The notes under the pieces are model-generated. The model was not told the DNA's origin and ran no database searches. It saw only the letters and a program-made list of their open reading frames with translations. The translations under genes and the position numbers were made by a program. Shown here in pieces: positions 10,066 through 39,791 of a stretch of 64,000 nt of DNA; the stretch's first letter is position 1; every line of letters begins with the position of its first letter. Where the stretch lies: assembly GCA_905480195.1 (NCBI GenBank), contig CAJQPN010000015.1:32785-96784 (forward strand), given 5' to 3'. The DNA comes from an uncultured Acidimicrobiales bacterium. Its GTDB lineage: Bacteria > Actinomycetota > Acidimicrobiia > Acidimicrobiales > Aldehydirespiratoraceae.

Positions 10066-10953
10066 CTAGTGCTTCCGAGTCGGCGCGTCGAGTGGCTGCA
10101 CGTATTGCCAGCCAAACCGGCCCTTGATGCAGAGCATGCCGCTGGTGACCGAGTGGTCGGCCGGCGAGGTGACTTTCACGATCTTGTCGTCCTGGGTGTG
10201 CAGCTCAAGGTTGCAGCCCACACCGCAGTACGAGCACACCGTGCGGGTGACCTCCTGCTCGTCGGGACGCCAGTTGTCGGCCCCGCGAAGGTCGTACTCG
10301 GTCTTGAACTGGATGGCCCCGGTGGGGCAGACAGCGATGCAATTGCCGCAGTAGACGCAAGCCGAGTCGGGCAACGTCACGTCGAACTCGGTGGAGATCC
10401 GCGCGTCGAAGCCCCGACCGCTGACGGCGATCGCATAGGTGTGCTGGGCATCGTCACCACACGCCTCGACACACTTGTAGCAAAGCACGCAGCGGTCGTA
10501 GTCGCGGATGTAGAGGTTGTCCTGGATTTTCGGCGCCTCGCCCATCTTCAATGCGGGCAGCTCGTACTGGTCGTAGCGGCTTGTGTCGGATCCGTAGTGC
10601 TCCATCCACTTCTGGAGCTCGGGTGCCTGGTCGAGGTCGACGCCCGACCCGAGGAACTCGAGCACCATCTTTCGGCTATGCCTCACCCGATCGGAGTCGG
10701 TCTCGACGACCATGTCTTCTTCGGCCGCACGAGCACAGGACGGTGCGAGCGCACGCTGGCCCTCGACCTCCACGACGCATACGCGACACACGCTGACCGG
10801 GGTGAGATTCTCGGCCCAGCACAAGGTCGGCGTGTCGATCCCGGCCGACTCACAGGCCTTGTGGATCGAAGTGCCGGCTGGGACCTCGACGATCTTGCCG
10901 TCGATGGTGAGCGACACGGTGGTCTCGATCGGGGTCTCGAAGGTCGCAGTCAC
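10066..10953 (-). CDS. formate dehydrogenase alpha-subunit N-terminal Fe-S fragment (NuoG-like 2Fe-2S, 2x 4Fe-4S ferredoxin, MopB-type 4Fe-4S)
   Basis: C-x10-C-x2-C-x13-C (LCWAENLTPVSVCRVC...APSC), CVLCYKCVEAC, CVYCGNCIAVCP, and CSYCGVGCNLELH...LCIKGRFGWQYV, then a stop. GTG 10953 overlaps the upstream stop (GTGA). Confidence 0.85.
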   Translation of the reverse strand: MTATFETPIETTVSLTIDGKIVEVPAGTSIHKACESAGIDTPTLCWAENLTPVSVCRVCVVEVEGQRALAPSCARAAEEDMVVETDSDRVRHSRKMVLEFLGSGVDLDQAPELQKWMEHYGSDTSRYDQYELPALKMGEAPKIQDNLYIRDYDRCVLCYKCVEACGDDAQHTYAIAVSGRGFDARISTEFDVTLPDSACVYCGNCIAVCPTGAIQFKTEYDLRGADNWRPDEQEVTRTVCSYCGVGCNLELHTQDDKIVKVTSPADHSVTSGMLCIKGRFGWQYVQPLDAPTRKH

Positions 10954-12722
10954 GAAGGCACCCCCGGGACGATGCCCAGCTCGATGGCGGAGTTGATGGC
11001 GTTGGTCGCCGTATGACCGAAGCCGCAAATGGAGGCGTCGACCATCACTTGGGAGATGTCGTCAACGAGCTGGCGCCGGTCGGGGGTGAGCGACCCCTTC
11101 TGCTGCAGCACGACCATCGTCTCGTGCTGTCGCACACAGCCGATACGGCAGGGGACACATTGACCACAGGACTCGTCACGAAAGAACTGTGAGATGCGCA
11201 CGAGAATGTCGACCATGTCGATCTCGTCGGTGAACGCCATGACCACACCGGAGCCGAGGGTGGTGCCGCGCTCGCGGGCGTGCTCAAGCGTGATGGGCAT
11301 GTCGAGGTACGAGCCATCGACGAACGAGCCTGCAGCGCCGCCCATCAGCACGGCCCTGAGTTCACCGGAACCGGTAAGACCACCGGCCAGTTCGAGAACC
11401 TCACCGAGTGTGGTCCCGAACTCGACTTCGTAGACGCCAGGCCGAGCAACCCGACCGCTGAGGCACAGGAGTTTGGTACCGGGTGAGCGGTCGGTACCCC
11501 GGCTGCGGTAGCCGTCGGCGCCAATCTGCACGATGTCGAGGACGTTCAGCAATGTTTCTGGGTTGTTGATCGCCGTCGGCTCCTGGAACAGGCCGTGGGT
11601 CGTCGGGAACGGCGGCTTGCTGCGCGGTTCGCCCCGGAAGCCCTCCAGCGACGCGAACAGGGCGGTCTCCTCACCACAGATGTAGGCACCGGCGCCACGA
11701 CGGATCTCGATGGTGAAGCGATGGCCCGAACCAGCTGCATCGTCGCCGAGAAGCCCCGCTTCGAGCGCCTGATTGATCGCGTTCTGCAACCTTGCGGTGG
11801 CCAACGGGTACTCACCACGGATGTAGATCCAGCCGTTCTCGGCGCCGGTTGCGAAACCGGCGATGGTGAGCGCCTCGATGACGGCGAACGGGTCGTTCTC
11901 CATGACGACCCGGTCTTTGAAGGTGCCCGGCTCGGACTCGTCGCAGTTGGCGACGACGTGCTTCGGTCGACCCTGCTCGGCGGCGACGGCGCGCCATTTG
12001 ATCCCGGTGGGGAACGCAGCACCGCCGCGGCCAGACAGACCCGAGTCGGCGACTGCGGTACACACCGCGTCAGCACCCATCGCCATCGCAGCGGTGAGTG
12101 CGTCATAGCCGCCGTGCGCGCGGTACGAGGCGAGTGATGTGGGATCGACCACGCCGATTCTTTTCAGGAGACGGAGTGATTCGTCACCTTTCTGGTGGAA
12201 CAGTTCATAGGGCCGCTCGTCGGCTTCGACCCGGTCGGGCCCTCCGACGCCCTGCACGAACTCGGCAACCTCCCCGGTACTGGCGTTGGCTCGCTCGCAC
12301 TGTCCGAGGCACGGCGACTCGTGGACGTTGATGCTCTGGGCCCGCAGTGCAGCGATCCGCTTGCCCGAGCCGGCGATCTGGCACGCAGCATCGACACATA
12401 CGTGGGTGACATCGCCGGCCTGGGTCGGCTCATCGGTGCGAAACAGGTCGTAAAAGGTGGCGACACCGTAGGCCTCGGCCGGTGGGACCTGCAGCGTCTC
12501 GCACACATGATTGAGGCCACCCGGGCTGATCCAACCCTTTGCGTTCTGCAAGGCGTGGAGGGCAGGCAACAACAGGTGTCGATGGTCGTGACGTTTCGAC
12601 GTGCCGGCTCGTACGAACCGCTCGCTCTCGCGTACGACGACGAAACGGCCCCCCAGGGCAGCGTCGACCGCTGCGATCTCGGCGTCATCCGCCATTTCGT
12701 CGGAGATGTACAGGTCAGCCAT
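10950..12722 (-). CDS. fused NuoE-like/NuoF-like NAD(H)-binding diaphorase subunit of formate dehydrogenase (FdsG-FdsB-like)
   Basis: N-terminal thioredoxin-like 2Fe-2S (CVDAAC...CLGQC). NuoF blocks follow: GRGGAAFPTGIKW, ANCDESEPGTFKDR, ESCGQCVPCR. Confidence 0.9.
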   Translation of the reverse strand: MADLYISDEMADDAEIAAVDAALGGRFVVVRESERFVRAGTSKRHDHRHLLLPALHALQNAKGWISPGGLNHVCETLQVPPAEAYGVATFYDLFRTDEPTQAGDVTHVCVDAACQIAGSGKRIAALRAQSINVHESPCLGQCERANASTGEVAEFVQGVGGPDRVEADERPYELFHQKGDESLRLLKRIGVVDPTSLASYRAHGGYDALTAAMAMGADAVCTAVADSGLSGRGGAAFPTGIKWRAVAAEQGRPKHVVANCDESEPGTFKDRVVMENDPFAVIEALTIAGFATGAENGWIYIRGEYPLATARLQNAINQALEAGLLGDDAAGSGHRFTIEIRRGAGAYICGEETALFASLEGFRGEPRSKPPFPTTHGLFQEPTAINNPETLLNVLDIVQIGADGYRSRGTDRSPGTKLLCLSGRVARPGVYEVEFGTTLGEVLELAGGLTGSGELRAVLMGGAAGSFVDGSYLDMPITLEHARERGTTLGSGVVMAFTDEIDMVDILVRISQFFRDESCGQCVPCRIGCVRQHETMVVLQQKGSLTPDRRQLVDDISQVMVDASICGFGHTATNAINSAIELGIVPGVPS

Positions 12723-12731
12723 CGAGCGACG

Positions 12732-14711
12732 TCACTCCCCACCCGCGACGACGAGCTTCTCGACCCGGATCGCTGCAGCCTTGAACTCGGCGGTGCCGGA
12801 GTCGCGGTCCCACTCGTCGTTGGTAATGGTGTTGATGTCGACCAGGTCCGGGAAGTGGAACGTGGTGAACGTGAGCCCGATTGGGATGTCGGCTTGCACC
12901 CGCACTCCCATCTCAACGGACCCACGAGGCGACGAGACGAGCACCCGTTCGCCATCTTCAATACCGAGGCCGGCGGCGTCGACCGGGTTCATGTCGAGTT
13001 CGTCGCCGGAGCGGATCGGACTCTCGAAACCACCGGACTGCACGCCGGTGTTATACGAGTCGAGCGAACGGCCTGTGGTCAGCCGCAGCGGGAAGTCTTC
13101 GGTGAGGTGTTCCTTCGGACCTTCATGGTGGGTGATCGAGAAGGGTGATGGCTCGCGGCCACCCAAATCGTCTTCCCACAACCAACCATGAAGGTAGGGC
13201 GAGCCGGGATGATCTTCGGCCGGGCAAGGCCACTGCAGGCCACCCTCGGCTTCGAGACGGGCGTAGCTCATACCGCCATGCATGGGCGACAACGATCGCA
13301 GTTCGTCCCACAGCTCCTCGGGCGTGGGGTCGCCCCACTCGACGCCCATGCGCCTCGCAAGGTCGCCGATGATCTCGTGATCGTGACGGCACTCACCCGG
13401 CGGCGTCACCGCAGCGCGCACACGTTGCACGCGGCGTTCCGAGGAGGTGACCGTGCCGTCGCACTCGGCCCAGCCGACCGACGATGGGAGCACGACATCG
13501 GCGAGTTCGGCAGTACGGGTCATGAAAATGTCCTGCACGACGAGCAAGTCGAGACCTTCGAGCAGCGTGCGGGCGTGATCGGAGTCGGCCTCACTGTCGG
13601 CGGGATTTTCGCCAATGCAATACGCGGCCTTGATGGTTCCCTCGGCCATCGCCTCGAACATGAGGGTGAGGTGTCGGCCGTCGACCGGGTTGAGCTCCAT
13701 GCCGTAGGTCGCTTCGAACTTGGCTCGGTGCTCATCGTTGGTGACGTCTTGGAAGCCAGGAAACTTGTTCGGCAGCGCGCCCATGTCACCACCGCCCTGC
13801 ACGTTGTTCTGGCCGCGCAATGGCACGAGACCCGATCCCCATCGCCCGATATGGCCGGTGAGAAGCGCAAGGTTGCAGAGCGACTTGACGTTGTCGACAC
13901 CGTTGTGGTGTTCGGTAATACCAAGCGTCCACAGAATCTGCGCCTTGTCGGCCCTTGCGTAGGCGTGAGCGGCTTCGCGGATCGCCTCGGCGGGGACGCC
14001 GGTGACCGCCTCGGCATACTCGAGCGTGTACGGCTCGACGTGGGCCTTGTACTCCTCGAAACCCTGTGACGAATGGGCGATGAACGCCTTGTTGTGCAGA
14101 TCGGCTGCGATGATCTCGCGCCCCATCGCGTTCGCCATTCCCACGTCGGTGCCGACGTCGAGTCCGAGCCACGCGTCGGCGAACTTGGCCGATGACGTCC
14201 GGCGAGGATCGACGGCATACATGGTGGCGCCGTTGTCGAGTCCCTTCAGGACGTGATGGAAGTAGATGGGGTGCGCTTCACGAGCGTTGGAACCCCACAG
14301 CAAGATGACGTCAGCCTCCTCCACTTCGAGGTACGAGGACGTGCCACCCCCCGCTCCGAACACTGCCGCCAGACCGACGACACTGGGAGCGTGTCAAGTT
14401 CGATTACACGAATCGATGTTGTTCGTGCCGAGCGCCGTGCGCGCAAACTTCTGCGCCGCATAGTTCATCTCGTTGGTGCTCTTCGAGCAGCTGAACACGG
14501 CGAAGCCGTCGGCCCCCGATTCCGCCTTGACCTTGGTGAAACCGTCGACAGCCCTGCTCAGCGCCTCGTCCCAGGTTGCGTTGCGCAGAACACCGTTCTC
14601 GCGCACCATCGGGCTGGTCAATCGGGGCAGAGGGTCACTGAACTTCTTGGCCTTGCGCCGCGCGCTATTTTTGGATCCCACGATCCGGAACGGTACCGGA
14701 TCGTGGAACAT
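12732..14711 (-). CDS. formate dehydrogenase catalytic molybdopterin fragment, selenocysteine-containing (UGA 14396..14394 read as Sec)
   Basis: Track ORFs 14394..14816 and 12732..14363 share one frame and are separated only by TGA plus 10 sense codons. Joined, they read GTNNIDSCNRT-U-HAPSVVGLAAVFGAGGGTSSY, the FdhF/FdhA active-site motif. The rest is a MopB molybdopterin oxidoreductase. The start is uncertain (ATG 14816, 14711 or 14609, or GTG 14681). Confidence 0.85.
14353..14396 (-). promoter_or_regulatory. Sec UGA codon plus candidate bacterial SECIS hairpin
   Basis: mRNA: UGA CAC GCU CCC AGU GUC GUC GGU CUG GCG GCA GUG UUC GGA GC. Upper stem GUCGUC/GGCGGC, apical loop GGUCU, lower stem GCUCC/GGAGC. 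The upper stem begins 12 nt after UGA. GGU CUG sits at the same codon positions as in the E. coli fdhF SECIS. Confidence 0.55.
14675..14709. promoter_or_regulatory. 35-bp four-half-site palindrome (two tandem 17-bp GTTCCAC-N3-GTGGAAC-type boxes) at the 5' end of the fdh operon
   Basis: ATCCCACGATCCGGAAC G GTACCGGATCGTGGAAC. It is 27/35 identical to the site upstream of fhs and shares ATCGTGGAACA with the iclR and fhs sites. Confidence 0.55.
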
Positions 14712-16625: not shown

Positions 16626-16662
16626 CTGTTCCACATCGTGGAACAGCCCCACGATGCCATAG
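16626..16662. promoter_or_regulatory. perfect inverted repeat CTGTTCCAC-ATC-GTGGAACAG plus an adjacent weaker box; candidate IclR autoregulatory operator
   Basis: 9-bp arms with a 3-nt spacer (16626..16646), centred 37 bp upstream of the IclR ATG. The next 17-mer in the same 18-bp register is GCCCCACGATGCCATAG. Confidence 0.6.
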
Positions 16663-16672
16663 TGTGAACTGC

Positions 16673-17416
16673 ATGGCCGTGCAGTCGATCGAGCGTGCGT
16701 TCGCCCTCCTCCGGGCGCTTGCGACCGCACCGTACGGTGTGACCGAACTCGCCGAGCAGGTAGATCTCCCCAAGTCGACGGTCGCACGCCTGCTGGGTGC
16801 TCTCGAGTCCGAGGGTGTCGTCACCCAGGACGAGCTCGGCGGCGAGTACCGCCTCGGGGACGGGCTCCTCGATATCGCCGGCGCAGCGCAACCCGGTAGA
16901 AACCTCATCGCAACCGTCCGTCCCTTCCTGCTCGAATTGAGCGAGGAGATCGGTGAGGCAGCCGGCCTCGGGATCGCTCAGAATCGAGAGGTCTACTACC
17001 TCGACCATGCCGTACCCGAGACCGACGTGATGGTCAGGGACTGGACCGGTGAGTCATTGCCGATGCATTCGGTGCCGTCAGGCATGGCGATCCTCGCACA
17101 CATGTCTGCGGCCGCTCTCGAGGCGTACCTCTCGAGGCCGCCCGAACAGCTCACGCCCTACACACTGATCGACCCGGAGGCCATCCGCGAGCGCATCGAT
17201 GCGATCCGTCAGCTCGGATACGCGTGGGGCTTCGAGGAGGGCGTCGACGGGATCAACTCGCTGGCAGCGCCGATCATCGGTCCCGACGGCCTGGCCATCG
17301 CCGCCATTCATGTCCACGGTCCGGCGTACCGATTCCCCAACCCCGATCGCACCCACGATCTCGGGAGTCGCCTCATCGAAGCTGCAAACGGTGTCGCCGC
17401 CCAGCTGAACGACTGA
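16673..17416 (+). CDS. IclR-family transcriptional regulator
   Basis: MAVQSIERAFALLRAL...VTELAEQVDLPKSTVARLLGALE (HTH) followed by an IclR effector domain. The upstream part of track ORF 16031..17416 overlaps proS and is rejected. Confidence 0.9.
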   Translation: MAVQSIERAFALLRALATAPYGVTELAEQVDLPKSTVARLLGALESEGVVTQDELGGEYRLGDGLLDIAGAAQPGRNLIATVRPFLLELSEEIGEAAGLGIAQNREVYYLDHAVPETDVMVRDWTGESLPMHSVPSGMAILAHMSAAALEAYLSRPPEQLTPYTLIDPEAIRERIDAIRQLGYAWGFEEGVDGINSLAAPIIGPDGLAIAAIHVHGPAYRFPNPDRTHDLGSRLIEAANGVAAQLND

Positions 17417-26670: not shown

Positions 26671-26709
26671 GCCCTCATAACATCAACATGATCAATGATG
26701 TGCAACACT

Positions 26710-27236: not shown

Positions 27237-27311
27237 GCTGCGGGCCGCTGACGACGGTCGAGACAGGGTGTCAGCAGCGTTCCTCGTATCCCGATCCTCG
27301 CGACGCGCCAG

Positions 27312-28145
27312 TCACGCCGCTTCGATCGCTGCGTTGAGAGCCTCGAGACCGGCGGGATCGAGTTCGCCCCGCCACGACCAGACCACCACGTCGACGCCCG
27401 CATCGAAGAAGTCTTGGGCCCGTTCGAGCAGCTCGGCGGGTTCACCATCGGTCCCGAGATGGACCGACCGGGTGATCTCAGCCTGATCACGCCCGACCCG
27501 CTCACAGTGACTTCGCAGCACCTCGTCGAGCTCTTGCCAGTCCGACGGGGTTTCGGGGAAGGTCATGTCCCACTGGTCGGCGAACCTGGCCGCGGTCCGC
27601 AGGGTGCGGACGCGACCCTTGCCGCCGATCACGATCGGTATCGGATCCTGAACCGGTTTCGGTTCACACCACGCGTTCTCGAGCGCGAAGAAGCGACCCG
27701 AGAACGACGTCTCCTTGTTCGCAAGGAGCGACACGATGATCTCCATCCCTTCCTCGAGGCGATCGGAACGGTCACGCAACGGCCCGAGGTCGATGCCGTA
27801 GGCATCGCTCTCCATGAAGTTCCAGCCGGCACCCATACCGAGTTCGAATCGACCACCGGAGATGATGTCGATCGTGGCCGCCATGTTCGCGGTGACCGCA
27901 GGGTGACGATGATGCATACCGTTGACCATCGACCCGACCCGGATCCGCGAGGTCGCCTGCGCAAGCGCGGCCAACATCGTCCAACCCTCGAGATTCGGAC
28001 CGTCGTAGGGCGGCGCCAACGGGTAGAAATGATCCCAGTTCCACGCCGATTCGAACACCGGCATCTCGTCGGCCATCTGCCAGAACCGCAGGAACTCGTC
28101 CCAAGTGGCGTGGTGTGGCGGCGTCTTGATCGCATGGCGTCCCAT
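27312..28145 (-). CDS. LLM-class (luciferase-like) F420-dependent oxidoreductase
   Basis: LLM blocks (GWTMLAALAQATSRIRVGSMV, GGRFELGMGAGW, PIVIGGKG). Confidence 0.8.
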   Translation of the reverse strand: MGRHAIKTPPHHATWDEFLRFWQMADEMPVFESAWNWDHFYPLAPPYDGPNLEGWTMLAALAQATSRIRVGSMVNGMHHRHPAVTANMAATIDIISGGRFELGMGAGWNFMESDAYGIDLGPLRDRSDRLEEGMEIIVSLLANKETSFSGRFFALENAWCEPKPVQDPIPIVIGGKGRVRTLRTAARFADQWDMTFPETPSDWQELDEVLRSHCERVGRDQAEITRSVHLGTDGEPAELLERAQDFFDAGVDVVVWSWRGELDPAGLEALNAAIEAA

Positions 28146-28199
28146 GTACGTGCCCTTTCGACGGCGTGTCGCGACCGTAGTCCGTCGGCGCTACTCGGC

Positions 28200-29424: not shown

Positions 29425-30393
29425 TCAGCCCCTGCGAGCCTTCACTTCCTCGATGATTGCAGGGATCACCTCGTGGAGGTCGCCGATGACGGCCCAATCG
29501 GCCTTCGTGACCATGTTCGCTTCCCGGTCAGTGTTGATCGCCAGAATGTGCTTCGAGGCCATCGCGCCGACCCAGTGCTGAATCGCACCGGAGATGCCCG
29601 ACGCAATGTAGATCTCTGGAGCGATCCGGGTGCCGGTCTGGCCGACTTGGTCGGAGTGGGGACGCCAACCGTTGTTGGTGACCGCGCGCGAGCAGCCGAC
29701 CCGACCGTTGAGCAGGGCGGCAAGTTCTTCGAGCGGAGCAAAGCCGTCGGCTGAACCGACACCACGACCACCGCCGCACACGACCGGCGCAGTCGGCAGG
29801 GTGACCCCTGCTTCGAGCACGACGCGATCCTTCACCATCGTGATGGTGACGCTGTCGTCGAGATCGGCATCGAACGACTCGGCATCGCCGTCACCTGCAC
29901 CGCCGACCTCGGCCGCCACGGCGTGCAGACCACAGGTGAGCAGCGGAACCTCCGCGTCGAGGGCGAGGTCTTCGAGCAGCGAACCGCCCCACTGGACCCG
30001 GGTCATCGACCACGACTCACCGGGGGTGACGTCGACGCAATTGGCCACGAAGGGCACGGCGAGGCGGGCAGCGGCCTGGGCCATGAACTCGTTGCCGCGG
30101 TCAGAACCACAGGCCAGCACCGCAGCCGGTTTGAGTTCTTCGATCATCTGGGCGATCACGGCGCCGTGAGCATCCGGACCGTAGTCCCGGAGAAGGTCGT
30201 GGGTGCAGGTGTGGACGGTGTCGGCGCCGAACTCGCCGGCAGCAGCGACGAGACCGGCATCATCGCTACCGATGAGCGCAGCTTCGAGATCGTCGTCCAT
30301 CTTTTCGGCGAGCACGCGGCCGAAGGTCAACGCCTCCTTGGCTGCTTCGACGAGTTCTCCGTTGTCGTGTTCGACGATGACGAGGAGCATCAA
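29425..30393 (-). CDS. etfA: electron transfer flavoprotein subunit alpha
   Basis: C-terminal FAD-binding block (PEIYIASGISGAIQHWVGM). Overlaps etfB by 4 nt. Confidence 0.9.
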   Translation of the reverse strand: MMLLVIVEHDNGELVEAAKEALTFGRVLAEKMDDDLEAALIGSDDAGLVAAAGEFGADTVHTCTHDLLRDYGPDAHGAVIAQMIEELKPAAVLACGSDRGNEFMAQAAARLAVPFVANCVDVTPGESWSMTRVQWGGSLLEDLALDAEVPLLTCGLHAVAAEVGGAGDGDAESFDADLDDSVTITMVKDRVVLEAGVTLPTAPVVCGGGRGVGSADGFAPLEELAALLNGRVGCSRAVTNNGWRPHSDQVGQTGTRIAPEIYIASGISGAIQHWVGAMASKHILAINTDREANMVTKADWAVIGDLHEVIPAIIEEVKARRG

Positions 30394-31172
30394 AGCACCC
30401 CCAGCTCGTCGAGCACGTCGACCACGGCGGCGGCGGCTTCCGGTCCGGTCCCGAGGATGACCGTCTCCGACAGGGCCTCTTCGGGCCGGTGGAGCCTGAG
30501 CCGGGCCTGACCACCGGCATCGGCAGAAGCCCCGACCGTACCGATCTCGACCTTCTTCGAAGCGAGGCGGCCTTTCATCGTCGGATAGCGAGGAAGGTTC
30601 AGCCCCTCCTTGACGCCGAGCACGGCGGGACGGGGAAGCTCGTAAACCTCGAAGCCCCCGTCAATTTCTCGACGGGCAATGATCGCGTCGTCTCCGATCT
30701 CAATGCCCTTGATGCCCTGAACAATCGGGCGACCCAGCGCATGGGCAACCCGGATACCGACCTGAAACCCGCCGCTGTCGGCCGATTCGTTTCCGAACAG
30801 GATCAGATCGAACGGCTCGGCGGTGCCGTCGCTTCCGTTGGCGGATTCGACATCCTGAATGGCTGCGGTCAGCGCAGCTGCGATCCGTTGCGGATCCCAC
30901 GTGTTGTCGCCGGCATCGACGAGCACCGCGTGATGTGCACCCACGGAAACGGCGTACCGGAGCTGCTCCTCGGCGTCGCTGGTGCCGAGGGTCATGACGG
31001 TGACTTCTCCGCCGTGCTCCTCGATCAATTGCACGGCGCCCTCCACCGCACACTCCTCGTGCGGCGACGTCGTGAACCCGAGATGCGCCGCGTCGACGTC
31101 CTGTCCGTCGGCCGTGATATTGATCTTGGCCCCTGGAGCAGGCACCCGCTTCACGCAGCAGAGAATCTTCAT
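30390..31172 (-). CDS. etfB: electron transfer flavoprotein subunit beta
   Basis: MKILCCVKRVP...TSPHEECAVEGAVQL is a typical EtfB N-terminus. Confidence 0.9.
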   Translation of the reverse strand: MKILCCVKRVPAPGAKINITADGQDVDAAHLGFTTSPHEECAVEGAVQLIEEHGGEVTVMTLGTSDAEEQLRYAVSVGAHHAVLVDAGDNTWDPQRIAAALTAAIQDVESANGSDGTAEPFDLILFGNESADSGGFQVGIRVAHALGRPIVQGIKGIEIGDDAIIARREIDGGFEVYELPRPAVLGVKEGLNLPRYPTMKGRLASKKVEIGTVGASADAGGQARLRLHRPEEALSETVILGTGPEAAAAVVDVLDELGVL

Positions 31173-31179: not shown

Positions 31180-33753
31180 TCAGGCCTTCATCCGGGAATC
31201 ATCCGGGTCGAACGCAGATCCCGGGCCGACCACCGTGCAGGGATACAGCTCGTTCATGTACATCGACTGCAGCTTGGTGCCGGGCACAGCTAACTCGTTG
31301 GGCAGGTACCCCATGAGGAGGTTCTTGCCGAGCGACGGGCTGTAGCCCGCGGTGGTGACCCGCGAGGCACGGCCGTGTGAATCGACGATGCGTTCCCCGT
31401 CGAGAGTGAGGATCGGTTCGTTGCCGCCTTGCATGTAGCGGGGGTTGCCGTTGCGGTCGGTGTTGTCGTCGACGATGAGGGTCACGCATTGGACCTCGGC
31501 ACCGGCATCGCGGGCAGCCAGGTAGGCCTCTTTGCCGATGAAGTCGGCGGCCTTGACCTTGGGTCGTGCGAGGCCAGCCTCGACCGGGTTGTACTCGCTC
31601 TCGAGTTCGGCGCCCATCAGGCGGTAGCCCTTCTCGATTCGACCGGACAGCGAGTAGACGCCACCACCGGTGATGCGCAGACCGTGATCGGCGCCGGCCT
31701 CCATGATGGCGTCCCAGACGGTCGTGGCGTCGTCCCAGGGGACGTAGATCTCCCAGCCGGCGTCGCCGACGTAGGAGATGCGGAACAGGTGACAGTCAAC
31801 ACCGGCAATGTTCACCGGCAGGTAGGAGCCGTACGGCGAACCTTCCTGGCTGAGGTCGTGGTCGGTGAGCTGGCCGAGGACCGTCGCTGCGTTGGGGCCC
31901 CACAGGCCGAGGGTGCTGATCTGCTTCGTCAGGTTGGTGAAGGTGACCGAGCCGTCGTTGGGCATGTGCTTGCGGACCCAGAACTCGTCGCGCCCACCGT
32001 CGAAGACGCCGGTGACGATGCGGACGCGATCGTCGGCCATCCGCATCATGGTGAGGTCGGAATGGAATCCGCCCTCGTGGTTGAGCCAGGGCGTGTAGAC
32101 CGAGCGGCCGACGGGCACATCGATCTTGTTGACAGCCAAGTAGTCGGCAAACTCGACGGCACCGGGGCCCTCGAGTTCGAAGATCTGGAACGCCGAGAGG
32201 TCGATCATGCCGCAGTGCTCGCGCAGGTTGAGATGCTCACCGACGGTGATGGGGCTCCACCAACGGTTGTCCCACTCGACGGGGCGTTCCTCGAGCCCGT
32301 ACCGCTCGACGAGATCGGCATTCGACGCGTACCACTGCGGTCGCTCCCAGACGCGGGCCTGGAAGAACTCGGCGCCGAGCGCCTCTTGGCGGCTGCGGAA
32401 CGGCGACTCCACGAGGTGGCGGCGGCCGCCCCACTGCTCGGCAGGATGCACAATGCCGTAGGTCTTGATGAACGATTCGTCGGCGCGCGACCAGATGTGC
32501 TCGTCGCTCTTCTCTTCGTCGTAGAACCGGGCGACATCGGCGCCGTGGGCGTCGATCACGCGGGGGTAGCCGTAGTGCATCCACTCGGCAACAACCTGAC
32601 CCATACCCGGGCCTTCCTTGACCCAGACGGCGGCGGCGGACCACAGGTTCTCGACGTCGGGGAGCTCACCCAGGCAGGGCATGCCGTCGGGGGTAAGCGA
32701 GAGCAGGCCGTTGATGGCGTACTTGATCTCGGCGTCGCCGAGGAAGTCCATCAACTCGATAGCGGTCTCCATCTGCGGATCGAAGTCGTCGGGGGTGAAC
32801 GGCATCTCGGTGGGCGAGAGCGCAGCTTCTTCGTTCGACGGGATGTCGTCGGGGTGGTGGAGGATGGCGCGGTGGCCATAGGAGCCGACCTCCATCGAAC
32901 CTGACGATTGACGCTCGTAACAGAACGTGTCCATGTCGCGGACGATCGGGTAGCCGATCTCGTTGCCTGTCTCTGCGAGGATGTCCATTGGTCCGACGTC
33001 GGCCATCTGGTGAACGGCTGGCACCAGCGGGATGTACGTGTCGGCCATGTAGGCGATGCGGTTCGACCAGACGCCGCACGCGATGACGACGTGCTCGGCC
33101 TCGATGGTTCCCTTGTCGGTCTCGACGGCAACGATCTTGCGACGTCCGTTGGGGCGGGGCGTGTCGTCGGTGATGAGATCGAGAACCTCAGTGTTCGCAA
33201 AGACCTGGAGGCCAGCCTTCTCGATGGCCTCCTTTCGCATCACGGTGCCGGTCTCGAGTGAGTCGACCACGGAGACAGTCGGGCAGTAGAAGCCGCCCAT
33301 GATGACCTCTTCGTTGATGAAGGGAACGAGTTCCTTCACCTCGGCGGGCGACAGTAGGTGGGCTTCGATGCCCCATGCGGTGGCCGAGGTCATGCGCCGC
33401 TGGAGTTCGTCCATGCGCTCTTGGGTGCGTGCGACCTCGATACCGCCAGAGTCGACCGACAAGCCGAGGTCGCGGTACTGGTTGGCGGACTGCTCGCCGA
33501 GCAGCGCCATCTCCTTGTTGTGGTCGACCGGAAAGATGAAGTTCGACGCGTGGCCGGTGGAGCCGCCGGGGTTGGGCAGCGGGCCCTTGTCGAGCAGTAC
33601 GAGGTCGGTCCAACCCAGGCGGGCCAGGTGACCGACGACGCAGTTGCCGACGATGCCGGCGCCGATGACCACGCACGTTGCTTTCTCCGGTACTGCGGAG
33701 GTTGGGATGTCGCTCACAGGTGTCCCCTCATTGATGGCTGGCGATTCGGACAA
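31180..33753 (-). CDS. FAD-dependent dimethylglycine/sarcosine dehydrogenase-like oxidoreductase with C-terminal GcvT (folate-binding aminomethyltransferase) domain
   Basis: 857 aa with an N-terminal GAGIVGNCVVGHL dinucleotide fold and a C-terminal GcvT-like region. Located directly upstream of etfBA. Confidence 0.85.
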   Translation of the reverse strand: MSESPAINEGTPVSDIPTSAVPEKATCVVIGAGIVGNCVVGHLARLGWTDLVLLDKGPLPNPGGSTGHASNFIFPVDHNKEMALLGEQSANQYRDLGLSVDSGGIEVARTQERMDELQRRMTSATAWGIEAHLLSPAEVKELVPFINEEVIMGGFYCPTVSVVDSLETGTVMRKEAIEKAGLQVFANTEVLDLITDDTPRPNGRRKIVAVETDKGTIEAEHVVIACGVWSNRIAYMADTYIPLVPAVHQMADVGPMDILAETGNEIGYPIVRDMDTFCYERQSSGSMEVGSYGHRAILHHPDDIPSNEEAALSPTEMPFTPDDFDPQMETAIELMDFLGDAEIKYAINGLLSLTPDGMPCLGELPDVENLWSAAAVWVKEGPGMGQVVAEWMHYGYPRVIDAHGADVARFYDEEKSDEHIWSRADESFIKTYGIVHPAEQWGGRRHLVESPFRSRQEALGAEFFQARVWERPQWYASNADLVERYGLEERPVEWDNRWWSPITVGEHLNLREHCGMIDLSAFQIFELEGPGAVEFADYLAVNKIDVPVGRSVYTPWLNHEGGFHSDLTMMRMADDRVRIVTGVFDGGRDEFWVRKHMPNDGSVTFTNLTKQISTLGLWGPNAATVLGQLTDHDLSQEGSPYGSYLPVNIAGVDCHLFRISYVGDAGWEIYVPWDDATTVWDAIMEAGADHGLRITGGGVYSLSGRIEKGYRLMGAELESEYNPVEAGLARPKVKAADFIGKEAYLAARDAGAEVQCVTLIVDDNTDRNGNPRYMQGGNEPILTLDGERIVDSHGRASRVTTAGYSPSLGKNLLMGYLPNELAVPGTKLQSMYMNELYPCTVVGPGSAFDPDDSRMKA

Positions 33754-33765: not shown

Positions 33766-33775
33766 TGATATATCA
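33766..33775. promoter_or_regulatory. TGATATATCA palindrome in the DMGDH/GntR divergent region
   Basis: Perfect 10-bp palindrome in an AT-rich patch (cagTGATATATCAgtcgtgtatcatcag). Candidate GntR/FadR-type operator or -10 region. Confidence 0.35.
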
Positions 33776-33879
33776 GTCGTGTATCATCAGAAGGTTAGAG
33801 CGGTCGCACAACGACTGCAACAGGAAAAGGGATCTGCGGCGCCGTCCGCAGCGAAGAATCGTCGGAGCAACCACCGAAC

Positions 33880-34530
33880 ATGCAATCGCTCAGCGCACAG
33901 GCCTACACCGAACTTCGACACCAGATCGTGCGCCTTGAGTTCGCTCCCGGCGACGTGTTGCGAGAAGACGCCCTCCAAGAGCGGCTCGGACTCGGCCGCA
34001 CACCGATCCGAGAGGCACTTCAGCGACTCGCCCGAGAGCACTTCATCACTGTCATCCCGCGCCGCGGCATGTTCGTGAGCGGGATCGACGTGTCGGAACT
34101 CTCGATGCTGTTCGAGACCCGCACAGTCCTCGAGCCCTACGCAGCCCGCCTGGCCGCAGCGCGCGGCACCGACGACCACTGGGCCCGTATGGCGGGCGCC
34201 CTCGAAGGGGTCGCTGACGCCGCCGGCAGCGAAGATCTGATGCAGATCGATCGAATGGGCCACGAGATCATGTGGGAAGCCGCCGGCAACCGGTTCCTGG
34301 TCGACACACTCGACATGCTCTACGCCCAATCCGATCGACTGTGGCATCTCTACCTATCCGACGTCGCCGACATGAGCCACGCAGTCGACGAGCATGGAGA
34401 GATCATGGACGCTCTTCGAACCGGCGACAGCGACCGTGCCGGCGACCTCATGGAGGAGCACATCCGCGCCTTCGACGCCCAGATCCGAGCCGCTGTCACC
34501 GAGCGCCTCGAATCTCCCCTTGCGGGCTGA
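33880..34530 (+). CDS. GntR-family (FadR/FCD subfamily) transcriptional regulator
   Basis: YTELRHQIVRLEFAPGDVLREDALQERLGLGRTPIREALQRLAREHFI, followed by an FCD domain. Confidence 0.9.
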   Translation: MQSLSAQAYTELRHQIVRLEFAPGDVLREDALQERLGLGRTPIREALQRLAREHFITVIPRRGMFVSGIDVSELSMLFETRTVLEPYAARLAAARGTDDHWARMAGALEGVADAAGSEDLMQIDRMGHEIMWEAAGNRFLVDTLDMLYAQSDRLWHLYLSDVADMSHAVDEHGEIMDALRTGDSDRAGDLMEEHIRAFDAQIRAAVTERLESPLAG

Positions 34531-34544
34531 GCGAAACGGCTGCC

Positions 34545-34579
34545 GTTCCACAATGCGGAACCCTTCCGTATCGTGGAAC
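34545..34579. promoter_or_regulatory. 35-bp four-half-site palindrome upstream of fhs
   Basis: GTTCCACAATGCGGAAC C CTTCCGTATCGTGGAAC, centred 85 bp upstream of the fhs ATG. Confidence 0.6.
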
Positions 34580-34646
34580 ACACTGGTACGCTCGGCGTTG
34601 ACGGGCCCTGGGGAGGGCCCACGAGCATGTTTGTGGGGAAAAACCG

Positions 34647-36344
34647 ATGTCCTTCCCATCTGATCTTGAGATCGCCAGTGGCGCGAGCCTCAAGCCGCTG
34701 AGCGAGATTGCCGCTGCTGCTGGCATTCCCGAGGAATGTCTCGAGCCGTACGGAACCGGTGCTGCAAAGATCACCCTCGATGCCATTGAGAAGATGGCTG
34801 ACCGTCCGAAGGCAAAATACGTCGTCGTCTCGGCCATCACCCCCACCCCGCTGGGCGAGGGCAAAACCACGACAACCGTCGGCCTGGGTCAGGCGTTCCA
34901 GTACATCGGGTCGTCGGCCACCATCGCCATCCGTCAGCCCTCGATGGGCCCGACCTTCGGCATCAAGGGCGGGGCTGCCGGCGGCGGCTACAGCCAGGTC
35001 GTGCCGATGGAGCTGTTCAACCTTCACCTCACCGGCGACATGCACGCCGTCACCGCAGCCCACAATCTGTGCGCTGCGATGGTCGACGCGCACCTCTACC
35101 ACGGCAACGAATGTGGCTTCGACATCCACAACATCACGTGGCGTCGCGTTGTCGACATCAATGACCGTGCACTGCGCAACGTCACGATCGGCCTCGGCGG
35201 AAAGATGGACGGCATCCCCCGCGAGACCGGCTTCGACATCACCGCCGCCTCAGAAGTCATGGCCGCGCTGGCGCTCGCGACCGATCTGTTCGACCTGCGA
35301 GCCCGCATGGGCCGCATCGTGCTCGGCTACACAAAGGCCGGTGAGCCCATCACCGCCGAAGACATCGGCGCAGCCGGATCGATGACCGTCATCCTGCGGG
35401 AGGCGATCAAACCAAACCTGATGCAAACGCTCGAGAACACCCCCGCTCTCGTGCACACCGGCCCCTTCGGCAACATTGCCACCGGCAACAGCTCGATCGT
35501 GGCCGACCGAATCGGGATCCACACGAGCGACTTCTTGCTGACCGAGGCCGGCTTCGGCGCCGACATGGGCGCCGAGCGATTCTTCAACATCAAGTGCCGC
35601 TACTCGGGTCTCGCTCCTGACGCGTCGGTGCTCGTGGCGACCGTCCGCGGCCTCAAGGCCCACTCCGGCAACCATCGCATCGTCCCGGGCAAGCCACTGC
35701 CCCCGGCCCTTCTGGAGGCAAACCCCGACGAGGTCCACCAGGGCGGCGACAACCTGCGCAAGCAGCTTGAGAACATGCAGATCCACGGCTGCACTCCGGT
35801 CGTTGCGATCAACGTGTTCCCCGGCGACCACGACGAAGACATCGCCGCCATCCACGAGATCGCGTCGGAATACGGTGCCCGCGCGGCCGTCTCGACGCAC
35901 TTCTCCGACGGTGGCCGAGGCGCGTCGGAGTTGGCCGAGGCGATCAAGGACGCTGCCGACGAACCGTCCGAGTTCCAGGTCCTATACCCCGACGATGCCT
36001 CGCTGAAGGACAAGATCTACGCGGTCGCCACCAGGGTGTACGGCGCCGATGGCGTGGAGTACTCGTCCACCGCCGACAAGCAGATCGCGAACTTCACCCA
36101 ACAGGGCTTCGCTCATCTGCCGGTGTGCATCGCGAAGCAACACCTTTCGCTCAGCCACGACGCCAACCTCAAAGGTGCTCCCACCGGATGGACGCTGCCA
36201 GTTCGCGAAGTACGGGCCTCTGTCGGTGCCGGTTTCGTCTACCCGATCTGCGGCGACATGCGCACCATGCCGGGTCTCGGCACCACGCCCGCTGCCCAAG
36301 CGATCGATATCGACCACAACGGCGACATCGTCAATCTCTCCTAG
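34647..36344 (+). CDS. fhs: formate--tetrahydrofolate ligase
   Basis: 565 aa. SDLEIASGASLKPLSEIA..., TPTPLGEGKTTTTVGL and GFGADMGAERFFNIKCR are canonical Fhs blocks. Confidence 0.95.
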   Translation: MSFPSDLEIASGASLKPLSEIAAAAGIPEECLEPYGTGAAKITLDAIEKMADRPKAKYVVVSAITPTPLGEGKTTTTVGLGQAFQYIGSSATIAIRQPSMGPTFGIKGGAAGGGYSQVVPMELFNLHLTGDMHAVTAAHNLCAAMVDAHLYHGNECGFDIHNITWRRVVDINDRALRNVTIGLGGKMDGIPRETGFDITAASEVMAALALATDLFDLRARMGRIVLGYTKAGEPITAEDIGAAGSMTVILREAIKPNLMQTLENTPALVHTGPFGNIATGNSSIVADRIGIHTSDFLLTEAGFGADMGAERFFNIKCRYSGLAPDASVLVATVRGLKAHSGNHRIVPGKPLPPALLEANPDEVHQGGDNLRKQLENMQIHGCTPVVAINVFPGDHDEDIAAIHEIASEYGARAAVSTHFSDGGRGASELAEAIKDAADEPSEFQVLYPDDASLKDKIYAVATRVYGADGVEYSSTADKQIANFTQQGFAHLPVCIAKQHLSLSHDANLKGAPTGWTLPVREVRASVGAGFVYPICGDMRTMPGLGTTPAAQAIDIDHNGDIVNLS

Positions 36345-36355
36345 GGAGGCTGCCC

Positions 36356-37246
36356 ATGGCTCTTTTCAAGAAGTCCGAGATGCCCGCAATCGTCGAATCC
36401 GACGAGGCAAAGGCACACCGCGAACACCTGACCCGCAGCTACACCATCGAACTCATCCCGATGAAGAGCCTCGAGACAGCGCGCGAACACCTGCCCACCG
36501 GAGCAACCCTCTCGATCACCGCTTCACCGGTGAAGGGCCTCGAAGAGACCCAGCGACTCACCGAGGTTTTCCAGGCCGAAGGGTTCGATCCCGTCCCCCA
36601 CATCTCGGCCCGAATGGTGCGAGACAGGGCCCACTGCGCCAGCATCGCCCACTGGCTGCGTGACAACGGCCTGAAGAAGATGTTCCTCGTCGGGGGTGAC
36701 CAGGATCCGCCCGGCGAGTACTTCGACGCCGTGCGCTTCCTGGAAGACTTCCTCGAACAGGACCACGGACTCGACGGTCTCGGAGTGACGTCGTATCCCG
36801 ACCATCACGCCGTCATCTCCGACGAGCAACTGCACGAAGCGCTGCACGCCAAGCAAACGCTGCTCAATGCCGCCGGGCTGCACGGTTGGTGCTCCACGCA
36901 GATGTGCTTCGACGCCACCGTCATCGAGGCCTGGCTGCGAAAAGAGCGGGCCGAAGGCCTGACCTTGCCGGTGCATCTCGGCGTGTCGGGCGTGGTCGAC
37001 AAGGCCAAGCTGATGACAATGGGCGTCCGGATCGGCCTCGGCGCGTCACTCGGGTACCTCAAAAAGAACCGGGCTGCGATCACGAAGATGATGACGTCGA
37101 CCTCGTACGACCCCAACGACCTGCTCATGCCGCTCTCGAGCGCTGCCGTCGAACTCGGCATTGAGGGCGTGCACATGTATACGTTCAACCAGGTCGAAGC
37201 CACCGAACAGTGGCGGGCCGAAGCGCTCGCCGAACTCGCCGGCTGA
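36356..37246 (+). CDS. metF: methylenetetrahydrofolate reductase family protein
   Basis: MTHFR-family blocks (PHISARM, FLVGGD, SYPDHH, STQMCFD). ATG 36356 follows GGGAGG. The upstream part of track ORF 36125.. overlaps fhs. Confidence 0.75.
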   Translation: MALFKKSEMPAIVESDEAKAHREHLTRSYTIELIPMKSLETAREHLPTGATLSITASPVKGLEETQRLTEVFQAEGFDPVPHISARMVRDRAHCASIAHWLRDNGLKKMFLVGGDQDPPGEYFDAVRFLEDFLEQDHGLDGLGVTSYPDHHAVISDEQLHEALHAKQTLLNAAGLHGWCSTQMCFDATVIEAWLRKERAEGLTLPVHLGVSGVVDKAKLMTMGVRIGLGASLGYLKKNRAAITKMMTSTSYDPNDLLMPLSSAAVELGIEGVHMYTFNQVEATEQWRAEALAELAG

Positions 37247-37282: not shown

Positions 37283-38467
37283 TCAGCGTCCCTGGAGGGC
37301 GTCACGCATCGCCGTGAGATGCAAGAACGATCCAGTCACCACCACGGTCACCGGATCGAGCGCCTTTGCAGCTGCGGCTGCTGAGGCCGGATTGGGCGCC
37401 GGCCATGCCGGCACACCGACGCGTTCGAAGGCTGCGGCGACGCTCTCAGCTTCATGGCCCTGGGGGCCGGAACCACCCCCGAACGTCACCGCTACGACCC
37501 GATCCAAGGCCGGGGCGATCGCCGTCGCACATTCGTCGAGTGCCTTGGCCGCACCGATCGCCACGACACCAACCCGGGGACGCGGCTTGTCGGCGAGTGA
37601 CGATGCCAGGGCCCGGAGTTTCATGGGGTTGTGCGCGCCATCGAAGATCCAGCTCGTCGATCCCTCACCATGGTGCTCGAAACGACCTGGTTGCTCGACA
37701 AAACGCACCGCAGGGGCATCGGGTACGAGCTCGGCGACAGCTGCCGTTGCGGTCGCTTCGGCGTCGCGCCTCCAGTCGTGCTCGGGTGCCACCTCGACGA
37801 GCCGCACCCCGGCGGCTGCCGCACACGTCCGCGCAACGGCCACCACGGCATCCGATGGCTGCGGACCCAGGACCGCGACGCATCGACCGGTCACCACGGC
37901 CATCTTCTCCGCGGCAATGGCCTCGACCGTGTCGCCGAGAACGTCGCAGTGATCGAGTCCGATTGCTGTGACAACCGTGACGACGTCGTCACGGTTGAAG
38001 GTGTTGGTCGCATCGACACGGCCGCCGATTCCGGCCTCCACGACAAGCCAGTCGGTTTCGGCACGACGGGCGAGTACGTAGGCCATCGCTGCGGTCACTG
38101 CGAAGAAGGTCGGCCGTTGGTCGAGATGTTCGGTCGCAATACGAACCTCGGCGGCTGCTTCGGCCACCGCCGCCCAGCCTGGGAGATCGTCGGCGACCGT
38201 GAACCGCTCTCGGATGTCGTGCACGTGAGGCGAGAGGTGGAGTCCGACCGTGTCGCCACTGCGTCGAAGCGTGTCGGCAACGAGGCGGGCAGCGGTTCCC
38301 TTGCCTGCGGTGCCTACCACGTGAACAGCTCGGACCCGATCCTGCGGCTCGCCCAGTGCGCTGAACAGCGAAGCTGCTGCGGTGCGCGCGACCTCACCAC
38401 GGGGCGCGTCAGCCCGAACAAACGACGACAGCCATGTCTCGACCGCCTCTGACTCCGAGGCGCTCAC
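37283..38467 (-). CDS. folC: folylpolyglutamate synthase / dihydrofolate synthase
   Basis: Mur-ligase P-loop VVGTAGKGTAARL and FolC-like blocks. Start provisionally placed at GTG 38467; the track ORF extends to 38701 across the serA start. Confidence 0.8.
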   Translation of the reverse strand: MSASESEAVETWLSSFVRADAPRGEVARTAAASLFSALGEPQDRVRAVHVVGTAGKGTAARLVADTLRRSGDTVGLHLSPHVHDIRERFTVADDLPGWAAVAEAAAEVRIATEHLDQRPTFFAVTAAMAYVLARRAETDWLVVEAGIGGRVDATNTFNRDDVVTVVTAIGLDHCDVLGDTVEAIAAEKMAVVTGRCVAVLGPQPSDAVVAVARTCAAAAGVRLVEVAPEHDWRRDAEATATAAVAELVPDAPAVRFVEQPGRFEHHGEGSTSWIFDGAHNPMKLRALASSLADKPRPRVGVVAIGAAKALDECATAIAPALDRVVAVTFGGGSGPQGHEAESVAAAFERVGVPAWPAPNPASAAAAAKALDPVTVVVTGSFLHLTAMRDALQGR

Positions 38468-38501: not shown

Positions 38502-38536
38502 GTACCGACATACGGAACTGTTCCACCATACAGAAC
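38502..38536. promoter_or_regulatory. third tandem-box site of the GTTCCAC/GGAAC family, in the folC/serA divergent region
   Basis: GTACCGACATACGGAAC T GTTCCACCATACAGAAC. Same 17+1+17 register, but here the inner half-sites (CGGAAC-T-GTTCCAC) are the best conserved. 20/35 identical to the fhs site. Confidence 0.45.
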
Positions 38537-38585: not shown

Positions 38586-39791
38586 ATGAAGGTGCTACTC
38601 GCCGACGCGCTGCCTGACACAGCCGTCGAGCAGCTCGAGACCGCGGGTGACGAGGTCACCTGTCTCCCCGATCTCACTGCCGAGACCCTCCCCGACGCCA
38701 TCGCCGGCTACGAGGTGCTCGTCGTCAGATCGACGATCGTCACCGCCACTGCCCTCCAGGCCGCGAACAAGCTCGGCCTCATCGTCCGCGCCGGTGCAGG
38801 TACCAACACCATCGACTGCGACCGCGCCGCCGAACTCGGCATCTTCGTCTGCAACGTGCCGGGCAAGAACGCACTCGCAGTCGCCGAACTCACGATGGGT
38901 CTCCTCATCGCCGTCGACCGCCACATCTCGGCCGCCACGGCCGACCTTCGAGCAGGCACCTGGAACAAAAAGGCGTACTCGAACGCCGATGGGCTGTTCG
39001 GTCGCCGGATGGGCATCATCGGTCTCGGCGACATCGGCATCGCCACCGCCGCTCGCGCCTCAGCGTTCGGGATCGACGTCGTCGCCGTCGCCAAACCCGG
39101 CCGCAACCACGCCGCGGTCGCTCGCGCCGAGGCGGCCGGTGTTCGCTGGCTCGACGATCTCGACGAACTGCTCGCCAGCTGTGACATCGTCTCGATCCAC
39201 GTACCTGGTGCTCCCGACACCAAAGGCCTGGTGAACGCAGACTTTCTCGCCACGATGAAGGAGGGGGCAATCCTCCTCAACACCAGTCGCGGTGACGTCG
39301 TCGACGAAGCTGCTCTGATCGATGCACTGAACTCGCGAGGCATTCGCGCCGGTCTCGACGTCTTCGCCAACGAACCCGACAGCGGAACAGGCGATTTCGA
39401 CAGCGCCCTCGCCAAGCACCCTTCTGTCGTCGCCACTCATCACGTGGGTGCGTCGACCGCTCAGGCCCAGAGCGCAATAACCGACGGGACACTCGAGGCG
39501 ATCGACGCCTACCGGGCCGGCTCCCCGATCAACTGTGTAAACCTCAACCCGGTGCCCACCCGCGCCGCCACCCTCACGGTCCGCCACCACGACCGGGTCG
39601 GCGTCCTCGCAAACGTGCTGCAGGCACTTCGCAAAGAGCAACTCAACGTGTCCAACATGCAGAACCGAGTCTTCGCCGGCTCCAAGGCTGCAGTCGCCTC
39701 GATCGACGTCGGCCATCTCCCTTCCCAGGAACTCATCGACGAGGTCATGTCCCTCGACGATGTGATCTACGTATCGGTCACGCCCGCATGA
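38586..39791 (+). CDS. serA: D-3-phosphoglycerate dehydrogenase (with C-terminal ACT domain)
   Basis: 2-hydroxyacid dehydrogenase fold (GIIGLGDIGIATA, RGDVVDEAAL). C-terminal ACT-like region (LTVRHHDRVGVLANVLQAL). Confidence 0.9.
   Translation: MKVLLADALPDTAVEQLETAGDEVTCLPDLTAETLPDAIAGYEVLVVRSTIVTATALQAANKLGLIVRAGAGTNTIDCDRAAELGIFVCNVPGKNALAVAELTMGLLIAVDRHISAATADLRAGTWNKKAYSNADGLFGRRMGIIGLGDIGIATAARASAFGIDVVAVAKPGRNHAAVARAEAAGVRWLDDLDELLASCDIVSIHVPGAPDTKGLVNADFLATMKEGAILLNTSRGDVVDEAALIDALNSRGIRAGLDVFANEPDSGTGDFDSALAKHPSVVATHHVGASTAQAQSAITDGTLEAIDAYRAGSPINCVNLNPVPTRAATLTVRHHDRVGVLANVLQALRKEQLNVSNMQNRVFAGSKAAVASIDVGHLPSQELIDEVMSLDDVIYVSVTPA

Follow-up and report, generated by a model that had tools for sequence, protein, structure and literature searches.

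Conserved tandem palindromes as predicted operators of an IclR-family regulator of formate and one-carbon metabolism genes in uncultured Acidimicrobiales

We analyzed a stretch of 64,000 nucleotides (the window) from an uncultured Acidimicrobiales bacterium (contig CAJQPN010000015.1), in which a preliminary description had reported a recurrent box, GTTCCAC-N3-GTGGAAC, and had read it as the operator of a formate and one-carbon (C1) regulon. The four loci concerned lie before the gene of an IclR-family transcription factor (iclR), at the 5' end of a formate dehydrogenase (FDH) operon, upstream of fhs and in the folC/serA divergent region. The sequences reported for them were all found in place, as one single box and three double boxes in a 17+1+17 arrangement. 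The genes of the window were annotated with Pfam and NCBIfam, and boxes were scored with a position weight matrix (PWM) that was trained solely on sites of other species and then applied to the window (the relatives-only PWM). The boxes, the regulator and the predicted target genes are as follows.

14675..14709, unstranded: predicted double IclR box (14675-14691 and 14693-14709), 5' end of the FDH operon
16628..16644, unstranded: predicted single strong IclR box GTTCCACATCGTGGAAC, before iclR; 23.7 bits, relatives-only PWM
34545..34579, unstranded: predicted double IclR box (34545-34561 and 34563-34579), 5' of fhs; 27.0 and 18.9 bits, relatives-only PWM
38502..38536, unstranded: predicted double IclR box (38502-38518 and 38520-38536), folC/serA divergent region; 16.4 and 18.6 bits, relatives-only PWM
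16673..17416, plus strand: IclR-family transcription factor (HTH_IclR and IclR_C; Pfam), proposed binder
10066..14681, minus strand: split NAD-type FDH operon, predicted target (Pfam, NCBIfam)
34647-36344, plus strand: fhs, predicted target (Pfam, NCBIfam), in an operon spanning 34647..37246
36356-37246, plus strand: MTHFR-like gene, predicted target in the same operon as fhs (Pfam, NCBIfam)
37283..38467, minus strand: folC, folylpolyglutamate synthase, predicted divergent target with a probable GTG start at 38467 (TIGR01499, 208 bits, over the cutoff)
38586-39791, plus strand: serA, predicted divergent target
39788-41032, plus strand: DUF1015 gene, predicted divergent target together with serA

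The iclR box had been called a perfect palindrome. This holds for its arms, which extend to 16626-16646 and are perfect over 9 bp (16626-16634 and 16638-16646), but not for its centre, ATC, which is non-palindromic. Its reported distance of 37 bp from the iclR ATG is that of the box centre, the end of the box lying 28 bp before the ATG, and a degenerate second box follows it at 16646-16662. Similarly, the 35-bp sites described as four-half-site palindromes are present, but each is made of two tandem 17-bp palindromes with one base between them. The fhs and fdh sites were identical at 27/35 positions (counted by eye), as had been reported, and the 11-mer ATCGTGGAACA common to the fdh, iclR and fhs sites had exactly three occurrences in the 64 kb, all on the plus strand. 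All four loci fall within the approximately 5% of the window that is non-coding, in keeping with the claim that they are 5' or divergent regions. The fdh double box, which had been placed at the 5' end of its operon, overlaps the probable GTG start (14681-14679, minus strand) and is not wholly 5' of the gene.

Allowing up to three mismatches, GTTCCAC-N3-GTGGAAC had 10 matches in the window, compared with 3.3 ± 2.0 in shuffled sequences, and none of 100 shuffles reached 10. A PWM built from the window boxes found no other match of comparable score except one inside a coding region. With the relatives-only PWM, the top six matches in the window (27.0, 23.7, 18.9, 18.6, 16.4 and 15.0 bits) were six of the eight boxes. 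Two PWM matches in coding DNA were treated as chance or coding-constrained and are probably non-functional: one in the dmgdh coding sequence (32175-32191, GTTCGAAGATCTGGAAC, 13–16 bits) and one in fdhCat (12845-12861, GGTCCGGGAAGTGGAAC), the latter being a conserved coding motif in relatives. Shuffled sequence yielded 1.65 matches at ≥12 bits in the PWM scan.

Conservation was assessed in 80 IclR-anchored loci from different Acidimicrobiales species, which carry an IclR orthologue at 57–94% protein identity and total 1.38 Mb of fetched sequence. Gene calls from third-position GC content (GC3) and codon usage mis-placed several genes, so sites were assigned to genes by BLAST against the Pfam-annotated window proteins. 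Boxes recur at iclR, fhs, fdh and folC/serA across other Acidimicrobiales species, and this conservation, which the preliminary description had put forward as a check, supports the reading of the boxes as predicted operators. A box with up to three mismatches lay within 150 nt upstream of the IclR orthologue start in 57/80 species. The core GTTCC-N7-GGAAC, with up to two mismatches, was found upstream of iclR in 60 relatives and in the window, mostly ending 28 nt before the ATG, and the consensus of the relatives' boxes is GTTCCGYAWTRCGGAAC. Exact GTTCC-N7-GGAAC occurred 97 times in the 1.38 Mb, against an expectation of ~1.3 (base counting, 4^10). The expected preference for intergenic over coding DNA was likewise seen in the relatives' loci (155 intergenic against 32 nominally coding matches at ≥14 bits), most of the 32 falling at mis-called gene starts. 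In one clade (L067-L086) iclR has no box of its own and closes the operon dmgdh-etfB-etfA-iclR; here a 17+1+17 double box in the fhs/dmgdh divergent region heads the iclR-containing operon.

The other targets gave a similar picture. Of the 27 fhs orthologues compared, 21 had a double box of ≥20 bits upstream, and at least 15 of those loci have no gntR nearby. The fdh-proS spacer could be analyzed in 52 of the relatives' loci, and in ~30 of these the fdh double box is kept at the 5' end of the operon. All IclR-anchored loci that extend to folC/serA (L015, L017, L049 and L051) had double boxes there, as did 6/6 serA relatives from metagenomes at 79–80% identity (L088-L093); boxes were absent from serA relatives at 58–60% identity. 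Measured between centres, the tandem boxes at fhs, fdh and folC/serA are 18 nt apart in the window, and so are those of the corresponding targets in relatives. Local amplification of the fdh operator region was seen in one relative (L026, 7355-7475): a box-containing 31-bp unit is present in 2.3 copies, and after it a 13-bp unit with one half-site, GGAACAAGTGTGC, in 5.5 copies.

The protein encoded at 16673-17416 exceeded the cutoffs for both IclR-family domains (PF09339, 57.6 bits; PF01614, 106.4 bits). None of the named IclR equivalogs (BhcR, PcaR/PcaU, IclR, KdgR, AllR) reached its NCBIfam cutoff for this protein, the best match being BhcR with 147.9 bits against a cutoff of 350. It is thus an ordinary IclR-family member and the equivalog of no named regulator. 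By sequence, its closest PDB entries are 3r4k and, second-best, TtgV 2xrn (E = 1.6e-23), and identical IclR proteins were found on marine metagenome contigs and metagenome-assembled genomes. Its recognition helix reads DLPKSTVARLL, with LPKSTVARL invariant across 27/27 aligned homologues.

That the boxes are of an IclR-family type, as had been proposed, agrees with the published family consensus GTTYCRYW3RYGRAAC, which defines the GTT-11-AAC subgroup of group 1, the commonest published IclR motif class (PMC8222616). The 34545 box, GTTCCACAATGCGGAAC, fits this consensus at every position, and the 16628 box, GTTCCACATCGTGGAAC, does so except for a C in the W3 spacer. Tandem sites 18–22 nt apart have been described for 94 orthologous groups and ascribed to tetramers (Suvorova & Gelfand 2021, PMC8222616); the 18 nt found here lie within that range. 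In the site table of the same study, CV3919, an otherwise unrelated IclR regulator with the helix LPKSTVSRL, is predicted to bind AGTTCCGCAATGCGGAACT (PMC8222616). The Acidimicrobiales loci show the corresponding phylogenetic footprint, with a box ~28 nt before the orthologue start in 57–60/80 species or, failing that, at the head of dmgdh-etfBA-iclR. The helix match to CV3919, this autoregulatory footprint and the operon linkage therefore indicate the protein at 16673-17416 as the binder, in line with the preliminary description, and the boxes are very probably its operators.

A factor encoded elsewhere, for example an IclR paralogue that also controls iclR, could in principle bind the same boxes. 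The motif class is common to many IclR orthologous groups, so that sequence alone does not single out a paralogue, and only 64 kb of the genome were seen. However, the box stands at a fixed distance upstream of exactly this IclR orthologue, the remaining clade has it at the head of an operon containing iclR, and the recognition helix matches the one in a regulator for which this half-site has been predicted, making binding by another factor quite improbable.

The GntR/FCD regulator encoded beside fhs had been offered as the alternative binder. The features that bear on this are as follows.

33880-34530, plus strand: GntR/FCD regulator (gntR), between dmgdh and fhs
31180-33753, minus strand: dmgdh, dimethylglycine-dehydrogenase-like DAO+GCV_T protein
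29425-31172, minus strand: etfA and etfB
33766-33786, dmgdh/gntR spacer: candidate GntR operator TGATATATCA-GTCG-TGTATCA (TGATATATCA at 33766-33775), in 9/9 gntR-bearing loci

Its position between dmgdh and fhs, with the fhs double box beginning 15 bp past the gntR stop codon, speaks for the GntR protein. Yet no more than 8 of the 80 relatives' loci contain gntR, the boxes at fhs, dmgdh and fdh persist without it, and in most relatives GTTCC-N7-GGAAC occurs in the absence of this FadR/FCD-type regulator. The box also fits the IclR-family consensus and not a GntR one. Moreover, the dmgdh/gntR spacer, where an autoregulatory GntR operator would be expected, holds another conserved element, TGATATATCA-N4-TGTATCA, in 9/9 gntR-bearing loci (eight relatives and the window). 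We therefore consider it very improbable that GntR binds the boxes; the TGATATATCA element is its own candidate operator. In the window there is no IclR box at dmgdh, and this, together with the conserved TGATATATCA element, suggests that dmgdh-etfBA probably passed from IclR to GntR control in the window's lineage, fhs having stayed with IclR.

The position of the fhs double box just past the gntR stop also raised the question of a nucleic acid hairpin (a gntR terminator, an attenuator or a repeat of the REP type) in place of a protein site. As RNA, the fhs 35-mer folds at -21.1 kcal/mol (z = -6.1), as any tandem palindrome would fold well. Compensatory changes at the variable box positions were not found, however: among 35 distinct boxes, complementarity was 19 against 21.6 expected for positions 6/12, 13 against 15.1 for 7/11 and 9 against 14.9 for 8/10. 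No U-tract or terminator call was obtained in 34400-34760, the boxes match no Rfam family, and an Rfam scan of the whole window at the gathering score returned no matches, hence no riboswitch (ZTP, THF) and no annotated selenocysteine insertion sequence (SECIS). An intrinsic terminator or known RNA family was thus indicated neither by these scans nor by pairing covariation. The same sequence, and not only the same structure, recurs at orthologous promoters in species without gntR, and at iclR there is just one 17-bp box, whose arms measure 7 bp (9 bp when the palindrome is extended). The hairpin explanation was rejected on the lack of a compensatory pattern, and we find it scarcely credible.

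The placement of the boxes was then compared with candidate promoter elements. The actinobacterial pattern TANNNT and its positional conservation were used in place of E. coli-type promoter signals, with n = 61 iclR promoters (60 relatives and the window). The candidate elements in the window are as follows.

16660..16665, plus strand: -10-like hexamer TAGTGT, 7 nt before the iclR ATG
34587..34592, plus strand: -10-like TACGCT, 7 nt past the fhs double box
14695-14690, minus strand: -10-like TACCGT, from the central GGTAC-C-GT of the fdh double box

At iclR, TANNNT begins at -12 or -13 from the ATG in 44/61 promoters, which suggests that the iclR mRNA is leaderless. Relative to this presumed start the box covers -45 to -29, and in many relatives a second box, the one that is degenerate in the window, covers -27 to -11. 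At fhs, TANNNT was found 7–9 nt past the boxes (offset 42–44 from the box start) in 13 promoters, the window included, so the boxes would cover the -35 element together with promoter sequence upstream of it. The presumed fhs leader carries a hairpin between the -10-like hexamer and the ATG (34603-34620, GGGCCCT-GGGG-AGGGCCC); the 56-nt leader folds at -21.9 kcal/mol (z = -1.75), and some relatives' leaders have similar GC hairpins.

At fdh, the centre of the double box always reads GGTAC-N-GT and not GGAAC-N-GT, a change that creates TANNNT. An in-frame GTG lies inside the distal fdh box in every relative, or an ATG instead in L032 and L043, and because of this conservation we place the fdh start at GTG 14681-14679. 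The fdh boxes would then span about -28 to +7 of what is probably a leaderless mRNA. In public gene calls (the window and L001-L006) the N-terminal FDH fragment begins at ATG 14711, a choice that would place the operator within the coding sequence.

From these arrangements we propose that each 17-bp box (GTTCC-R-Y-N3-R-Y-GGAAC) would bind one IclR dimer and that a dimer of dimers would occupy the 17+1+17 double boxes, whose centres are 18 bp apart, as their architecture suggests. At iclR, a box over the -35 region of a leaderless promoter would give autorepression. At fdh, boxes covering the -10-like TACCGT as well as the GTG start, on an mRNA that is probably leaderless, would also repress, and at fhs the boxes would end ~7 nt before the conserved -10-like hexamer. 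The predicted repressed set in the window comprises iclR, fhs with the MTHFR-like gene, the split selenocysteine FDH operon and folC/serA; dmgdh-etfBA and a corrinoid/MttB demethylation operon would be added to it in relatives. A pathway metabolite bound by the IclR_C domain would lift repression.

Repression is favored because the placements at iclR, fdh and fhs all overlap the core promoter, and the regulator most likely represses its targets. Some IclR-family members are activators, and activation by the same IclR at some or all promoters has in its favor that the fhs boxes lie over the -35 region and upstream of it, an arrangement likewise found with class II activators. The fdh boxes, in contrast, cover a -10-like element and a start codon, and the iclR boxes cover -45 to -11; both placements would block RNA polymerase, and we regard activation as unlikely.

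Several observations weigh against this assignment of the boxes as repressor operators of the IclR protein. The IclR gene served as the anchor for each of the 80 comparison loci, so co-localisation with it is partly built in. The iclR site of the window is a single box, its second box scoring -11 bits, and the 14675 box is weak (9.5 bits, rank ten in the window with the relatives-only PWM). With 18 bp, the spacing is among the shortest in the published 18–22 nt range. A scan for E. coli-type promoters around fhs found nothing, the -10 assignments rest on the loose TANNNT pattern, and boxes over a -35 element could also be compatible with class II activation.

The label of a formate/C1 regulon is upheld by the cross-species conservation, which refines it to the oxidation of methyl groups via tetrahydrofolate (THF) to formate and CO2. 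In relatives the core of the regulon consists of dmgdh, etfBA, fhs and the MTHFR-like gene, the pair of fhs and the MTHFR-like gene being kept next to boxes; FDH and folC/serA are, from this comparison, predicted clade-specific additions. Sponge-symbiont relatives have a double box at the head of an operon that ends in iclR (L059 2427-2461, L061 3167-3201, L062 3598-3632 and L064 3210-3244). This operon encodes a corrinoid protein, DUF1638, a protein with a "Virulence_fact" domain, a pterin-binding methyltransferase, RACo, MttB, GFA and IclR (Pfam annotation of L061 only). We take this gene set to be of the kind used for corrinoid-dependent demethylation of glycine-betaine-type substrates to CH3-THF, and such demethylation would therefore explain why an MTHFR-like gene belongs to the regulon. 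The corrinoid/MttB demethylation module is absent from the window.

A further-reaching interpretation, possible but doubtful, is that IclR is a dedicated sensor of methyl-group and C1-THF oxidation flux in abundant marine and sponge-associated Acidimicrobiales, with operators fused to leaderless -10 elements and start codons. Five processes may then be joined under one regulator: corrinoid/MttB demethylation, dimethylglycine dehydrogenase with ETF, MTHFR-like/Fhs, the split selenocysteine FDH, and folate polyglutamylation with serine synthesis. Such a sensor may respond to a derivative of folate, to formate or to a methylamine, for example dimethylglycine, and dmgdh may have been handed to an inserted GntR in the window's lineage.

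The remaining features of the target operons and their neighborhood are as follows.

14396-14394, minus strand: in-frame TGA (probable selenocysteine) of the FDH catalytic Mo subunit, in the context CNRT-U-HAPS
12722-10950, minus strand: NuoE/F fusion of the FDH operon
11028-10066, minus strand: separate FeS/Molybdop_Fe4S4 module (2Fe-2S/4Fe-4S, N-terminal part)
14853-16568, plus strand: proS
17487-20230, minus strand: ligB, ligA and aldehyde dehydrogenase, with further genes of an apparent lineage-specific insertion to ~29390
41066-41953, minus strand: folD

The FDH is split and permuted, with the Mo part first, the NuoE/F fusion second and the N-terminal FeS module last as a gene of its own, and this gene order is conserved in relatives. 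A hairpin after the FDH UGA was insignificant (z = -0.84), and no Rfam SECIS match was found there. In most relatives iclR adjoins etfAB-dmgdh. In the window ~12 kb between iclR and etfA (17487-29390) look like a lineage-specific insertion without IclR boxes, which contains ligB, ligA, aldehyde dehydrogenase, MarR, P450, FAD oxidase, sulfatase, Lrp, a luciferase-like gene and acyl-CoA dehydrogenase. Control of the adjacent ligAB/aldh genes by IclR was considered and rejected, there being no boxes at these inserted genes. No box was found at folD in the window.

For the IclR family, the motif, its occurrence in tandem and autoregulation are all textbook features (PMC8222616). The boxes resemble the published group 1 GTT-11-AAC operators in their palindromic sites, in the site before the regulator's own gene and in the range of tandem spacing, and the regulator shares with CV3919 the predicted pairing of an LPKSTV-R helix with a TTCCGC half-site (PMC8222616). 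The Acidimicrobiales orthologous group was not identifiable in the part of the tables of that study that was covered. The regulons described there are mostly for aromatic compounds and sugar acids, as opposed to the FDH, fhs, MTHFR-like, folC/serA and dmgdh-etfBA genes found here (PMC8222616). Nevertheless, consecutive rows of Supplementary Table 3 give MetF, Fhs, FolC, EtfA/B, FolD, PurU, SoxD/G, BetT, ProVX and FdhD as regulated clusters of orthologous groups (PMC8222616). Since Fhs, MetF, FolC and Etf are among them, an IclR regulog resembling this one may have been predicted before, in other taxa.

Tandem IclR sites have been explained by a tetramer that binds cooperatively to adjacent, promoter-overlapping sites (PMC8222616), and TtgV of Pseudomonas putida (PDB 2xrn/2xro) is likewise an IclR-family tetramer on a long operator. 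TtgV differs in that it controls an efflux pump and senses aromatic compounds, and its operator sequence is unrelated. E. coli IclR and AllR and the glyoxylate-linked BhcR share the domain architecture of the regulator, but it scored far under their equivalog cutoffs (350–406) and is not an orthologue. The E. coli IclR box is reportedly TGGAAAT-N-ATTTCCA, a group 2-like half-site arrangement with the inverse orientation of the boxes described here. In Pseudomonas, the AraC-family regulators GbdR and SouR control the catabolism of glycine betaine, dimethylglycine and sarcosine. They are comparable in exerting pathway-specific transcriptional control over methylamine demethylation and linked C1 genes, but they belong to another protein family and another phylum, are activators in contrast to the presumed repressor, and have other motifs. 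Our literature search returned nothing specific on an IclR regulator tied to dimethylglycine or fhs, or on such a regulon, in Acidimicrobiia.

This is a well-supported regulon of an ordinary kind, which leaves the understanding of how IclR-family regulators work unchanged. The boxes aid the annotation of true start codons, such as the GTG of the split selenocysteine FDH that gene callers place elsewhere, and they mark predicted leaderless promoters in the class to which the Acidimicrobiales belong. The operator-regulator pair may serve as a biosensor scaffold once its effector is known. For uncultured marine Acidimicrobiales, a regulator, an operator and a target list are now defined as predictions. 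They bear on how these bacteria may control a flux of carbon and nitrogen that is quantitatively relevant in the sea, in which the methylated osmolytes glycine betaine and dimethylglycine are oxidized to CO2 by way of THF and formate.

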